The notes: generated by a model from the sequence alone, not told the origin. A DNA stretch of 27,388 nucleotides from an uncultured Candidatus Saccharibacteria bacterium (GCA_964615805.1 CAZTQI010000001.1:1-27388); one strand, 5' to 3'; numbered from the stretch's first letter, positions 11,496 through 15,299 are shown. Translations and numbers: made by a program.

Positions 11496-12059
11496 TTATA
11501 TAAGCTTGTTTATCAACTCCCAAATTCCAAAAAGAACAGCGAGTATAAATCCATTTCTAAGACTCCAGTAGAAACAGCTCAAAATTGTGCTTGCAATAAA
11601 GGTAAGATAATCTCTCCCTCTCAATTTACCTTTTGTATCGCCTCTTAGAAAAGCGGTAGCGATAAATGAATCTGTTTCGATAGAGAGGGCGATAAATGCC
11701 AAGATGTCATTTTTGCGAATAACTCTTACTAGCCACTTAAATAAGTGTGCGGGTATCCAGAAAAATATACGTATAAAAAAGTTTTTATGCTGATGAAGTC
11801 TGTCTGCCCACTCATGCCCCTCTTCCTTTAAAATTGAAAGTCCATTCACGCCCAGCCACTTAGCTTGATCTTTTTGATGTAGAATTAAAAAGACAAAATT
11901 ATTAGCTACTGCGGCAATTATCATTATAATGGTCCCAGACACAAACCCATACCAACCTATAATAAAAATCCAGAGTGGATTATCAAAAAACCAACTCCAT
12001 GTCGTATATAGACCCCATCCAGTTGCCACATGAGCAATTTTTTTTATATCAGCAGTCAT
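11496..12059 (-). CDS. Multi-pass membrane protein, paralog 1
   Basis: Several hydrophobic segments. Shares WSW..DNPLW, TDSFI.TAFLRG and YWSLRNG with 14727..15299. Confidence 0.8.
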   Translation of the reverse strand: MTADIKKIAHVATGWGLYTTWSWFFDNPLWIFIIGWYGFVSGTIIMIIAAVANNFVFLILHQKDQAKWLGVNGLSILKEEGHEWADRLHQHKNFFIRIFFWIPAHLFKWLVRVIRKNDILAFIALSIETDSFIATAFLRGDTKGKLRGRDYLTFIASTILSCFYWSLRNGFILAVLFGIWELINKLI

Positions 12060-12107
12060 ATTGTTTAAATATTATATCATTAAAATTGTCTGAGGGTAGA
12101 TAAAAAT

Positions 12108-12140
12108 AAACCGCGCTCTAGAATACTAGAATAGCGCGGT
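12108..12140 (-). repeat. 33-bp hairpin/terminator, copy 1
   Basis: AAACCGCGCTCTAGAATACTAGAATAGCGCGGT, identical to 14684-14716. Folds as a 12-bp stem with a 3-nt bulge, followed by a T tract on the minus strand. Confidence 0.9.
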
Positions 12141-12149
12141 TGCAATTGC

Positions 12150-12713
12150 TCAGCGAGTACTGGTGAATTTATCGTATAACAAATCGATTTTAGTTGTCTC
12201 TTCTCTAAATAAGGCAAGCCTTATTATGTTCCAATATTTACCGAACCAAAATCGTTGCCGGACAAACTCGCCTTCCTTAGAGAAGCCTAGGTTTACTGAG
12301 CCAGAAAGTGATGGAGTGTTGTATGAAAATACATCAAGACAGATTTTTTGAATTGGATAGACGCTAAACAGATGTTTAATGAATAAAACTGAAGCTATCG
12401 CTCCATATCCCCTTCTTTGAAATTTATCATCAATATATGTTCCCATAAACACATACCCATCAATCATGTTTGCATTATATGAATAAATCAAACCAAGAGG
12501 CTCGTCTGTCTTATTGGATACAATCAAAAATTGAACATGACGCTGTTTCTCAAGGTCTTTCTTATATTCCACCTTGAACTCATCGAACGAAAGAATGTTC
12601 CTTCTGTTTACAAACAATGACATATAGGAGTCTGTATTCCTCCATTTATACATTATTTGCAAATCTGATTCTGAAATTGGCCTCAATGATATATTTTTAT
12701 TTGAAAGTTTCAT
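12150..12713 (-). CDS. GNAT N-acetyltransferase, RimJ/RimL family
   Basis: LRPISESDL..MYKWRN, FQRRGYG, and N..S.....LGF..EG. SD GGGAGG. Confidence 0.88.
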   Translation of the reverse strand: MKLSNKNISLRPISESDLQIMYKWRNTDSYMSLFVNRRNILSFDEFKVEYKKDLEKQRHVQFLIVSNKTDEPLGLIYSYNANMIDGYVFMGTYIDDKFQRRGYGAIASVLFIKHLFSVYPIQKICLDVFSYNTPSLSGSVNLGFSKEGEFVRQRFWFGKYWNIIRLALFREETTKIDLLYDKFTSTR

Positions 12714-12758
12714 TTTTCCTCCCTATTTTGTTGTTTTTGAACTCAATTAACTTTTCCT

Positions 12759-12788
12759 ATTATAGCACGAGTTGTGTATATTTGTCAA
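12759..12788 (-). promoter_or_regulatory. Promoter for the GNAT gene
   Basis: Minus strand TTGACA-18 nt-TATAAT with a TGC extension. Confidence 0.7.
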
Positions 12789-12808
12789 AAAAATTGATGT
12801 TGTACGTT

Positions 12809-14092
12809 TTAGTTAACAAGAAACTCAAAATCTCCAATACCTGCAAATAATAGTTCCTTGCCTTCGAAATATTTTTTAATAAACATATTTACATCTTCCA
12901 CAGAAAGAGACTTTAGTATTTCTAAATATTCATCGGGTAAAATAAAATCCTGCTGATCCGTTAGTTCCTTCATCATTTGTGGACTTACCCAAAAACTAGA
13001 AATTTCAGATTCAAATTTAATATTTCTAATAATATTCTTCTTTGAGATTTCCATCTCCTCCTTATTGATACCATTATCTATGAGATTCCTTAATTCATCA
13101 TTAATTACCTTAATTACATCAATTGAATCCCTGACCTTACAACTCGTGCTTATAATAAGAGAAGAAAATTCTGAATAATCAAATATATTTGCTTGTACAC
13201 CATATACTAAACCCTTATCATACCTTAGGCTTTTATTTAATCTAGATGTGTTTCCTTGTCCCAAAATTGCAGACACCAAACTTCCTACCACTCTGTCTAA
13301 TTTATCAACACTTGATTTAAGTCTAGTAGATAAACTTAGGTAGTTTTGCTCTGGATTTATAATATTTTTAATCACTTGTTTCTTTGTATTAATGATTGGA
13401 AGCTCCACTCCATCCAATTTGATTGGTTTACGCAAACCATTAATTTTATTAAGAGAATCAACCACCAAATTAATATCAAAGTCTCCCGCTATAAAGTATG
13501 CCACATAACCGTTTGTTATATACTTTTCTCTATATTCAACAAGATCTTCTCTATTTATTTTTTTAACACTTTCATCAAATCCTAGTACCGGATTTTCTAT
13601 TTTAGTACCCTGGAAAAGCACTGAGCCTTGTAATACATTAATGTATTGTGCTGGGTTGGATGTATTTCTTGTTTGTTCAGCTAGTATAGCACCTCTTTCC
13701 TTTTCAATTATATCCTGAGAAAAAATGGAATGATTTAATATCTGATCTACCTTTTCAAACATATCAAGCATATCAGATTTGTCTGCTAAATCTATACTGA
13801 TCCAAAGATTCTGTTTATTTGTAAAAGCATTACTCCTTGCACCTATTTCTTGTATTTTTTCATTTAAAATAGTTTTTGTGGGATATTTTTCAGTTCCACC
13901 AACTATCATGTGCTCGCAAAAATGGGCTAACCCTGATTTGTCGTCATCAAACTGAGACCCTGCATAAAAATAAGCCCTAAAATATATTGGTGAATTTTGT
14001 TTATAGAACGAGTGAAGCTTTACACCATCGACTAATGTAACTTCTTCATACCCTACCCCGAAGTCTTGTATAGATTTTTTCATATGGTACAC
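12809..14092 (-). CDS. M16 (pitrilysin/insulinase-like) zinc peptidase
   Basis: GLAHFCEHM inverted HxxEH, SNAFT, ERGAILAE and LRYDKGLVY. Confidence 0.93.
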   Translation of the reverse strand: MYHMKKSIQDFGVGYEEVTLVDGVKLHSFYKQNSPIYFRAYFYAGSQFDDDKSGLAHFCEHMIVGGTEKYPTKTILNEKIQEIGARSNAFTNKQNLWISIDLADKSDMLDMFEKVDQILNHSIFSQDIIEKERGAILAEQTRNTSNPAQYINVLQGSVLFQGTKIENPVLGFDESVKKINREDLVEYREKYITNGYVAYFIAGDFDINLVVDSLNKINGLRKPIKLDGVELPIINTKKQVIKNIINPEQNYLSLSTRLKSSVDKLDRVVGSLVSAILGQGNTSRLNKSLRYDKGLVYGVQANIFDYSEFSSLIISTSCKVRDSIDVIKVINDELRNLIDNGINKEEMEISKKNIIRNIKFESEISSFWVSPQMMKELTDQQDFILPDEYLEILKSLSVEDVNMFIKKYFEGKELLFAGIGDFEFLVN

Positions 14093-14111
14093 ATATTAGC
14101 ACTTAGTACAC

Positions 14112-14146
14112 AAAATAAAAAGAGCTCAGATTATTAATCTAAGCTC
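14112..14146 (-). terminator. Terminator after the leftward 37-aa peptide
   Basis: Minus strand GAGCTTAGATT-AAT-AATCTGAGCTC then TTTTTATTTT. Confidence 0.75.
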
Positions 14147-14299: not shown

Positions 14300-14344
14300 T
14301 TGTTTAGTATTTACAGAATGAGACAACCTCATTCATCTAAATCA

Positions 14345-14408
14345 ATAGTAGCACTTTAAATACTAATGTCAAACAAATACTTGACAAAAAATTGCGTCGC
14401 TGTATTAT
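14345..14408. promoter_or_regulatory. Back-to-back divergent promoters for the two peptides
   Basis: Minus strand TTGACA (14367-14372)-16 nt-TACTAT (14345-14350). Plus strand TTGACA (14381-14386)-16 nt-TATTAT (14403-14408). Confidence 0.65.
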
Positions 14409-14490
14409 GAATTTAGATTAGTACTGTAATCTACATATAACACTGTGTACAGGCTATTCGAGCACAAAAACAAACAACAAAACTAAACAT

Positions 14491-14604
14491 ATGTTAAATT
14501 TACTGTTCAACATTCAATATGGTGGTGGCGGTGACAGCGAAGACGAAGGAGGTCACCCAGAAAGTGAAATCGAAGCTGAGGATGATGCTACCGGATCACG
14601 TTAG
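14491..14604 (+). CDS. Small Gly/acidic peptide 2, 37 aa: MLNLLFNIQYGGGGDSEDEGGHPESEIEAEDDATGSR (absent from ORF track)
   Basis: Hand translation. A/C-rich leader (ACAAAAACAAACAACAAAACTAAACAT) before the ATG, and a terminator 8 nt after the stop. Confidence 0.75.
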   Translation: MLNLLFNIQYGGGGDSEDEGGHPESEIEAEDDATGSR

Positions 14605-14612
14605 AACAACTA

Positions 14613-14647
14613 CACCCTAATTCTTATATGGATTAGGGTGATTTTTT
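14613..14647 (+). terminator. Terminator after the rightward 37-aa peptide
   Basis: CACCCTAAT...ATTAGGGTG 9-bp arms followed by ATTTTTT. Confidence 0.8.
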
Positions 14648-14683
14648 ATAATATATTCTCAAATAATGTAATCCCAATACAAA

Positions 14684-14716
14684 AAACCGCGCTCTAGAAT
14701 ACTAGAATAGCGCGGT
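14684..14716 (-). repeat. 33-bp hairpin/terminator, copy 2
   Basis: Identical to 12108-12140; lies 10 nt past the stop of membrane paralog 2. Confidence 0.9.
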
Positions 14717-14726
14717 CTGGTTAAAT

Positions 14727-15299
14727 TCAAATGAACTGTTTTGTCACTTCACAACCACCTTTGAGGATGGCGAGAATGACACCGTTACGAAGGCTCCAAT
14801 AGAGACAGCCGAGCGCTGAACTCCCAATGAAAACCTTGTAGTCTTTCCGAGCGAGCTTTCCCCCAACCTTTCCTCGCAGAAACGCTGTCGTGATGAACGA
14901 ATCCGTTTGGATTGAGAGGGTGATGAAAGCTAAGGCATTGTTTTTCCGCACTGCCCAAACGAGCAAACGGAAGAATAATGCCGGAACCCAGAAAATTGTG
15001 CGTATGAAGAAATTTCGATGTTCATGAACCTTACGGGCCCACTTATCACCATGTTCCTTCATCAGCTCAAGACCGTTTGTGCCAAGCCAATCATTTTCCT
15101 TCTTTTGATATATCACCAGAAAGATAAAATTGTTGACGATAGCAACAAAGGTCATCAGGATCGAGCCGTTAATGAGTCCGAGCCAGCCAATGACAGCGAT
15201 CCACAATGGATTGTCAAGAATCCAGCTCCAAACCCCGTACAAACTTAACCCTGTTGCAAGCTTTGCAAAATATTTTAATTTAATGATCTTCGTGGCCAC
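14727..15299 (-). CDS. Multi-pass membrane protein, paralog 2
   Basis: Roughly half-identical to 11496..12059 by eye and visibly more GC-rich. SD GGAGG; TGC-TATAAT at about 15369-15377. Confidence 0.82.
   Translation of the reverse strand: MATKIIKLKYFAKLATGLSLYGVWSWILDNPLWIAVIGWLGLINGSILMTFVAIVNNFIFLVIYQKKENDWLGTNGLELMKEHGDKWARKVHEHRNFFIRTIFWVPALFFRLLVWAVRKNNALAFITLSIQTDSFITTAFLRGKVGGKLARKDYKVFIGSSALGCLYWSLRNGVILAILKGGCEVTKQFI

Follow-up and report, generated by a model that had tools for sequence, protein, structure and literature searches.

Genes can enter a chromosome with a long target duplication: restriction-modification genes, mostly in competent species, have been found between direct repeats of 46-423 bp, of which the empty site holds a single copy (Furuta et al. 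2010, PMC2853133; also Nobusato et al. 2000, Gene 259:99). Another described arrangement is the minimal mobile element (MME) of Neisseria (Saunders and Snyder 2002), which, in the definition relayed in PMC3082526, consists of a conserved gene pair between which varying cassettes are incorporated by homologous recombination. Here, we analyze a locus that shares features with both. It lies on a 27,388-nt stretch of DNA, hereafter the window, deposited as an uncultured Candidatus Saccharibacteria bacterium (GCA_964615805.1, CAZTQI010000001.1:1-27388), where two exact copies of a 33-bp bulged hairpin, which we call T0, bracket genes for two small peptides, an M16 peptidase, and a GNAT acetyltransferase between the paralogous membrane protein genes P1 and P2.

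Other known systems provide further points of reference. Integron attC sites measure 57-141 nt and are built as R''-L''...L'-R' with GTTRRRY and RYYYAAC cores. The short conserved border sequences of lambdoid phages, known as linkers, permit homologous exchange of non-homologous cargo, and in the orphan-module arrays of polymorphic toxin loci, stubs of gene 5' ends accumulate. Bacteria of the candidate phyla radiation (CPR, or Patescibacteria) have tiny genomes with few recognisable mobile elements, yet their accessory genes vary between strains.

The locus resembles the insertions with long target duplication in that a block without mobility genes lies between direct repeats and a related genome carries one copy aligning to both. 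This pattern fits twice, with two congeneric genomes (G002 and G003) and a metagenomic strain (X4) as the empty counterparts for the P1-P2 context, and with the contigs L067 and L045 as the occupied and empty forms of a second one. The host genome (G000) has ComEC, DprA, and RecA, in keeping with the competent hosts of such insertions. On the other hand, the repeat is 33 bp long and a conserved terminator, as opposed to 46-423 bp of arbitrary target, and it recurs in another genome around other cargo, as a reusable docking site and not a one-off target. As in an MME, P1 and P2 are conserved and have a whole-gene cassette or nothing between them, depending on the strain, and exchange through homologous recombination upon transformation is plausible; unlike in an MME, which needs no internal repeat, the cassette is bounded by an exact terminator duplicate, the flanking genes are paralogs tied functionally to the cargo, and the partners re-assort at the hairpin. 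The likeness to integron cassettes consists of promoter-poor or self-contained units, an imperfect palindrome with extrahelical bases, and the existence of empty and occupied states. Unlike in integrons, no IntI was found, and the hairpin has 33 nt, one or two copies per genome, and a sense-RNA fold with a U-run; by inspection, it is without the R''/R' cores (GTTRRRY, RYYYAAC), in agreement with an original prediction, made from the sequence of the window, that no attC consensus is present. The locus is also unlike the HUH (Y1) systems IS200/IS605 and REP/RAYT (repetitive extragenic palindromes and their associated transposases), with no PF01797 match and two hairpin copies only. The 5' stubs of a gene X module in the window are reminiscent of polymorphic-toxin arrays; in contrast to these and to lambdoid linkers, the cargo here is a peptide/protease/GNAT module that is bordered by a terminator hairpin and lies in a cellular genome, that of a CPR bacterium. 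The terminator, the direct-repeat-flanked insert, and the empty site are thus of known kinds, whereas the features that vary from these kinds are a strictly conserved, genus-specific terminator of non-homologous genes as a reusable joint, two matched occupied/empty pairs in different contexts, the CPR setting, and a peptide/protease/GNAT cargo tied to flanking membrane genes.

Recurrence of the hairpin at alternative gene junctions

T0, the 33-mer AAACCGCGCTCTAGAATACTAGAATAGCGCGGT, occurs twice in the window without a mismatch, at 12108-12140 and 14684-14716, with a spacing of 2576 nt and 2543 nt between the copies. Read along the minus strand, the order is P1, T0, pepB, pepA, M16, GNAT, T0, and P2, and all of these except pepB, the sole plus-strand gene of the region, lie on that strand. 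The original prediction had described an exact 33-bp bulged hairpin bracketing a cargo of about 2.5 kb between membrane paralogs, and we confirmed the repeat, the fold, and the gene order. Its further remark that the paralogs are about half-identical and visibly different in GC agrees with our numbers: P1 and P2 are 55% identical, with GC contents of 45% and 36%, respectively, compared with 33% for the cargo and 37% for the genome. The G000 assembly to which the window belongs comprises 688 kb in 119 contigs and is 75% complete; a genome-wide count of the 33-mer, allowing up to 3 mismatches, returned those two copies only from this 75% complete genome, as the prediction required of a sequence that is not a dispersed terminator. 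Both junctions are crossed without differences by independent lake-metagenome contigs (X1 record 2, 11331-12982; X3 record 22, 14478-15043). The arrangement is therefore not an assembly chimera of the metagenome-assembled genome, and a chimera formed at the repeat was ruled out.

The same hairpin was found with other neighbors. The closest relative of the window GNAT, 82% identical in amino acids and 79% in nucleotides, lies on contig L067, which carries, in this order, an IS66 transposase gene, P160 (a 160-aa distant P-like gene), T0, a GGGG/acidic peptide gene on the minus strand, a 209-aa HExxH protein, a 70-aa open reading frame (ORF), GNAT, T0, and gene X. Both T0 copies of L067 are identical to those of the window, and the homology between the two loci runs from ~40 nt upstream of the GNAT start through T0; the same GNAT-T0 junction is also present in L068. 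Gene X of L067 is 85% identical in DNA to that of the window, which indicates that G000 has a closer relative in the L067 organism than in G002 or G003. The short contig L045 contains P1, a variant of the hairpin (variants in relatives are denoted T), and the start of X; with this order, and with a T-to-X spacer homologous to that of L067 (z 6.4), it is the empty counterpart of the L067 arrangement.

Across these contigs, the left partners at T are P1, P160, and GNAT, the right partners are P2, X, and the peptide module, and six combinations of them were observed: P1/P2, P1/X, P1/module, P160/module', GNAT/P2, and GNAT/X. In four contexts the sequence identity starts and stops at the 33-mer. 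A segmental duplication of a gene end plus its terminator, which predicts homology in the flanks, was rejected because the identity is confined to the 33-mer. Of the evidence for the hairpin as a recombination joint or module boundary, beyond a chance double terminator, this re-assortment is the strongest. In the X4 metagenome, a contig with P2 and T0 has a loose end at window position 12141, where it runs into an L067-like 3' end of the P160-like gene (P160, T, P2). It represents either a seventh combination or a join made by the assembler, as the 34 shared bases compare with k=31, and it was not counted as evidence.

To place the element phylogenetically, we searched the proteins of 60 relatives for P1 and P2; the genus has five other species among them, and three of these yielded orthologs. 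The P1 orthologs of G002, G003, G005, L045, and L047 are 64-71% identical to that of the window, and the P2 orthologs of G002 and G003 are 76-79% identical. A homologous hairpin follows the P1 orthologs in the same five and in L038; that of G003 is identical to the window's, and those of G002, G005, L045, L047, and L038 differ at 2-6 positions. The L038 contig (CAIYQA010000258.1), which has a P1-like 3' end and then a T variant at 437-465, is binned as 'Spartobacteria' and is probably a misbinned CPR contig. Among 401 sampled genomes of the order, T0 matches were found only in G000 (two copies), G003, and G005 (one each), and the single G002 hairpin matches a slightly looser pattern. A dispersed REP or common terminator was discarded as an explanation, given that the genome has two copies, each congener a single one, and the rest of the 401 genomes none. 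The viral contigs searched contained neither T0 nor a GNAT relative, and a phage or viral origin was likewise dropped. By these searches, the T0 element is restricted to one genus of Minisyncoccota (CPR/Patescibacteria). As to the genes themselves, P1 has a GC content of 45% in a 37% genome and is 71% identical to the G003 ortholog, though the window PPDK is 92% identical to that of G003.

The original prediction had proposed that relatives should contain an empty site with a single hairpin, and such alleles were found in G002, G003, and the X4 strain. In G002 and G003, P1 and P2 are adjacent, and the window segments 11542-12142 and 14676-15377 align to the same contig, overlapping on one hairpin. 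G005 has P1 plus the hairpin, and no P2 was found in it with the query used. A contig of metagenome X4, from a strain at least 90% similar, leads from window position 12053 to 14681 and leaves out 2627 nt; this allele has 29 letters of its own, including a short G003-like spacer with a TACAAT box, and a few single-nucleotide differences on each side. The near-conspecific empty allele of X4 indicates that presence of the module varies among close relatives inhabiting the same type of lake, and, together with the empty alleles of the two congeners, it shows the hairpin as the border of a gain/loss unit. The flank pair P1/P2 is conserved in G000, G002, G003, and the X4 strain, whereas the cassette is present only in G000-type genomes.

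Fold and conservation of the hairpin

On the gene (minus) strand, T0 folds into a hairpin whose outer stem is GC-rich and 8 bp long; a bulge of 3 nt (AUU) separates it from an inner CUAG/CUAG stem of 4-5 bp, which is capped by a UAUU loop, and a U-run lies directly 3' of the hairpin stem. T-runs of 3-8 nt follow all copies. The predicted energies of -19.1 and -20.4 kcal/mol (z -3.9 and -4.7) compare with about -9 for shuffled sequences. The hairpin is always co-oriented with the preceding gene: it starts 10 nt after the stop codon of P1, 9 nt after that of the window GNAT, and 7 nt after that of the L067 GNAT, and it overlaps the P160 stop. Within an alignment of 10 copies, the 12 proposed pairs hold on the gene strand in 100% of the 120 cells, whereas controls slid along the alignment pair in 29-58% of cells only. 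Wobble pairs (G·U or U·G) make up ten of the 120 cells and would be A·C mismatches on the complementary strand, and 2 stem pairs show compensatory double changes. The position after stop codons, the U-run, and the pairing restricted to the sense strand indicate an intrinsic terminator acting at the RNA level.

The pattern thus points to T0 as a putative RNA-level intrinsic terminator as opposed to a strand-neutral DNA site or a bottom-strand single-stranded DNA (ssDNA) substrate, and transcription would probably terminate at it. The locus was traced to 24 lake metagenome runs, with no RNA run shown to contain it, and an Rfam scan of 10500-16000 gave no match at E <= 1, so that a known RNA family was dismissed for this segment. 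As in Rho-independent terminators generally, there is a GC-rich stem-loop with a U-tract just past stop codons and with G·U covariation on the sense strand; unlike in the usual ones, the loop, bulge, and inner stem are unusually strict, and the element is common to non-homologous genes and stands at synteny breakpoints.

This strictness affects how the identity of the two window copies can be read. T0 of G000 recurs with 33/33 identity in G003, where P1 and P2 are ~75% identical in DNA to the G000 genes, and in L067, where the GNAT gene is 79% identical in nucleotides to that of G000 and the GNAT-T0 junction is at the same place. The terminators of the homologous peptide genes are, by contrast, unrelated between the window and L067. 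The exact match is therefore no sign of recency and reflects constraint. Accordingly, of the proposal that the terminator doubles as an insertion site with target duplication, the border of a gain/loss unit stands, on the evidence of the empty sites, whereas the 33/33 identity does not speak for a fresh target duplication, given that an unchanged 33-mer is also found at genes only 75-79% identical. All 10 copies keep the TATT loop, the CTAG/CTAG inner stem, and nearly the whole bulge, with flanks 65-80% identical. Such strict conservation, loop and inner stem included, corresponds either to a sequence-specific function or to continual homogenisation, and the conserved loop and bulge suggest a second, sequence-specific role of the hairpin.

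Proposed gain, loss, and exchange at the hairpin

The reading that we favor, and consider to have about an even chance of being correct, is a recombinase-independent gain and loss at T0, which would be a conserved module boundary where left and right partners re-assort. T0 would be the shared sense-strand terminator of the units of one accessory system (P1, P160, and GNAT) in a single Minisyncoccota genus, and as the same exact sequence ends several units, it could serve as a module boundary. DNA carrying a module plus one T0 would recombine with a resident T0 through this short homology, or enter as an insertion with long target duplication, without a dedicated recombinase, and the module would be lost by the reverse T0 x T0 event. 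An allele so formed could then spread between strains when DNA is taken up and P1 and P2 serve as homologies for ordinary RecA recombination. RecA, DprA, and ComEC are all present in G000 and provide a gene set for uptake and homologous recombination there; the ComEC match (Competence family; contig C4:5335-6096) contains one in-frame TAA. The GNAT-T0 linkage is common to the window and L067, and the right T0 copy may thus travel with the module. Both the recombination mechanism and the polarity, insertion or deletion, are inferred.

Several observations weigh against this reading. The T-to-P2 spacer is ~50 nt in the occupied allele and 23-45 nt in the empty ones, without detectable homology, which means that the occupied and empty alleles are not simple T0 x T0 derivatives of each other. 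Spacers show significant similarity for L045 versus L067 and for X4 versus G003 only; within the P1/P2 context, a, c, and c' have none, and spacer homology was given up as a guide to the crossover point. T0 is a 100%-identity island between 75-79%-identical flanks, unlike the ordinary terminators of the homologous peptide genes, and may have a sequence-specific role beyond the reach of the model. No circle, excision, or go-back joint was seen in four metagenomes, for which assembler contigs, which drop rare forms, were searched. By P1 identity G000 lies outside the cluster of G002, G003, and L045, making one gain and one loss equally parsimonious, and the P1/P2 identities were set aside as uninformative on polarity. 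Finally, a length of 33 bp comes close to the minimum at which RecA-dependent recombination works.

The empty alleles could also reflect loss alone, with the occupied order P1, T0, module, T0, P2 being the older state and deletion between the direct T0 copies, through RecA or replication slippage, producing the empty ones; no insertion would be involved and T0 would be a shared selected terminator. Direct repeats at this distance, 2.5 kb, are a textbook substrate for deletion, and the association is old, as P genes have GNAT/M16/peptide modules for neighbors in families as distant as those of G028, G131, and L090; GNAT, moreover, was linked to T0 before the window and L067 diverged by 21% in DNA. 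We nevertheless regard this account as unlikely. It does not explain an identical 33-mer at three non-homologous gene ends (P1, P160, and GNAT), nor the patchiness of the module, with GNAT homologs (E < 1e-15) in 29 of the 401 genomes of the order, and the array of X stubs nearby is a duplication scar, made by insertion and not by deletion. The mismatch of the T-to-P2 spacers between occupied and empty alleles counts against simple deletion, too. Rather doubtful as well is the proposal that T0 is mainly a sequence-specific regulatory element, such as a protein-bound terminator, an attenuator, or a processing site, duplicated by selection, with the polymorphism due to allelic replacement through P1 and P2 of the MME type and no part for T0 in mobility. 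The strict retention of loop, inner stem, and most of the bulge agrees with such a role, especially as ordinary terminators of the same modules are not conserved, and a co-regulation pattern is seen in G131, where a GNAT operon and a P-like gene share a duplicated promoter and 52-nt leader hairpin; moreover, the locus fits the MME definition as far as PMC3082526 relays it. However, synteny breaks exactly at T0 in all six combinations, which exchange through the flanks alone does not predict, and no candidate binding protein was identified.

An enzyme acting on the hairpin in trans is far less probable. The original prediction had pointed to bulged ssDNA hairpins as the substrates of integron integrases and HUH enzymes; under this proposal, a structure-specific recombinase (integron-integrase-like, HUH/Y1, or Xer) would excise 2576-bp circles and re-insert them at T0. 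The sharp, identical repeat edges in four contexts, the extrahelical bulge, and the coexistence of empty and occupied alleles are compatible with it; by inspection, two 8-bp inverted arms around an asymmetric center also resemble the general layout of tyrosine-recombinase core sites, and the genome has one Xer-type recombinase. This sole PF00589 match in G000, a 744-aa protein (contig C21, L086:1473-3707, minus strand), is of the housekeeping XerC/D type, with its catalytic domain split by an intein carrying a LAGLIDADG homing-endonuclease domain; it is best matched by XerD/XerC models and falls far below the integron-integrase cut-offs. No matching enzyme was found otherwise: neither the 27-kb window (integrase, transposase, or HUH) nor the L067 cargo (integrase, transposase, or Y1) contains a candidate gene, and in the 75% complete G000 genome there is no Y1 transposase (PF01797) match and, as in the window, no integron integrase (IntI). 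The hairpin is well below known attC lengths and lacks their core motifs, it appears, by inspection, unlike dif sequences, the Xer core sites that flank Xer-exploiting elements (IMEX) at the replication terminus, and its G·U stem variants on the sense strand only, together with the U-run directly 3', argue for an RNA element; no go-back joint was present in the contigs of the four metagenomes. The role as ssDNA substrate was therefore not upheld.

A bolder extension of the favored recombinase-independent reading would make T0 a dedicated, sequence-specific docking site: a terminator doubling as the 'att' of a cassette exchange without a recombinase, or with one yet to be named, that moves modules between P-family loci of CPR bacteria and is one case of a general, unnamed form of mobility via duplicated terminator hairpins. 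We consider this improbable. The locus provides a concrete, testable route for accessory variation in CPR genomes, in which modules would be added, removed, and re-paired at reusable joints without an element-encoded recombinase; T0 is one such joint, and the nearby promoter plus 5' stub of gene X is another. If general, it would explain the spread of RiPP-like (ribosomally made, post-translationally modified peptide) systems in these lineages, and a duplicated versus single terminator would be a simple signature for strain-variable cassettes in metagenomes.

Cargo module, flanking genes, and related joints

The coordinates of the features are given in Table 1. In the original prediction, the block between the T0 copies arrived as a unit. 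The block itself, however, is by its predicted signals a mosaic of three to four transcription units, as pepA and pepB have terminators of their own and GNAT its own promoter, and the sister module of L067 contains an unrelated protease, the 209-aa HExxH protein, in place of M16. The GNAT promoter, between M16 and GNAT, is a perfect TTGACA-18-TGnTATAAT of the extended type, which makes GNAT plus T0 a self-contained unit; this unit is exactly the segment common to the window and L067.

Table 1. Positions of the genes, hairpins, and peptide-family members at the T0 locus and on related contigs
Feature	Position	Strand	Remarks
P1, 190-aa membrane protein, GC 45%	14727-15299	-	From the ORF list; Minisyncoccota-specific family without Pfam model
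T0, left copy; predicted intrinsic terminator of P1, followed by a U-run	14684-14716	-	Starts 10 nt past P1 stop codon
pepB, 37 aa; short N-terminal segment, GGGG, acidic tail	14491-14604	+	Own terminator 14613-14640
pepA, 37 aa; short N-terminal segment, GGGGG, acidic tail	14186-14299	-	Own terminator 14146-14122
M16 (pitrilysin-type) peptidase, module-specific paralog	12809-14092	-	Pfam PF00675 and PF05193; start in the database entry is the ATG at 14083
GNAT (RimJ/RimL-like, Acetyltransf_3)	12150-12713	-	Own consensus promoter 12788-12759
T0, right copy; predicted terminator of GNAT, followed by a U-run; upstream of P2	12108-12140	-	Starts 9 nt past GNAT stop codon
P2, 187-aa membrane paralog of P1, GC 36%	11496-12059	-	Promoter of X-stub E directly after
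Peptide-family members	Window 14186-14299, 14491-14604; L067 2217-2318; L069 7201-7341		
Peptide-family members, continued	L073 6634-6795; L078 8282-8410; L082 7696-7815; L034 7645-7806; L087 1741-1848		

The combination of GNAT, a Gly4-6/Asp/acidic-tail peptide, and either M16 or the HExxH-209 protease recurs at a minimum of eight loci across the order (at least 8). Members of the peptide family, encoded beside a RimJ/RimL-like GNAT, have 6-12 N-terminal residues followed by Gly4-6, Asp, and a long acidic tail, and homologous peptides adjoin GNAT in L067, L069, L073, L078, L082, L034, and L087. As homologous peptide and GNAT genes are accompanied by M16 or by the unrelated HExxH protein, the protease has been swapped between otherwise homologous modules. 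The closest relatives of the window M16 are 55-66% identical and occur in varied RiPP-like contexts, whereas it shares only 24-27% identity with the housekeeping M16 copies found in relatives. Our literature searches found no described peptide/M16/GNAT system in Patescibacteria. From its composition, the module would be a RiPP-like or signaling peptide system in which the protease trims the peptide, GNAT may serve in peptide modification or producer protection, and the P proteins would be the membrane partners for export or immunity.

The P proteins have no Pfam or NCBIfam match, and in a protein atlas the family is mainly found in Minisyncoccota, with CPR hypothetical proteins only and a weak lead to small multidrug export proteins. 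P genes nevertheless stand beside the modules in distant genomes, in G028 as P, GNAT, M16, and peptide, in G131 as GNAT, peptide, M16, and P-like, and in L090 as peptide, M16, and P-like, which indicates that the flanking membrane genes are not bystanders; in L039, L041, and L043, a P-like gene lies within a few kb of an M16 gene.

Similar joints were seen at the promoter and 5' end of gene X, of which the window holds five copies, as full genes and stubs. On short contigs that are unrelated (L045 771-935; L048 656-774; L088 1356-1406; L069 5593-5700), the X promoter and first codons are likewise found next to T, P2, M16, or other genes, so that the X joint, like T0, is reused across genomes. 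Duplicated promoters bracket modules elsewhere, too. On L073 (G131:C3), from another family, a GNAT-peptide-M16 module lies between two copies of a consensus promoter, TTGACA-17/16-TATAAT, plus a 52-nt leader at 95% identity (5932-6017 and 8171-8255), and this leader contains the hairpin CCGATTC-GAA-GAATCGG. GNAT is driven by one of the copies, a P160-like gene by the other. On L069, a 37-nt promoter-like direct repeat, 92% identical (5555-5591 and 8709-8745), brackets an X stub, a 196-aa gene, GNAT, a GGGG peptide, and M16, and its second copy precedes a SET-domain gene.

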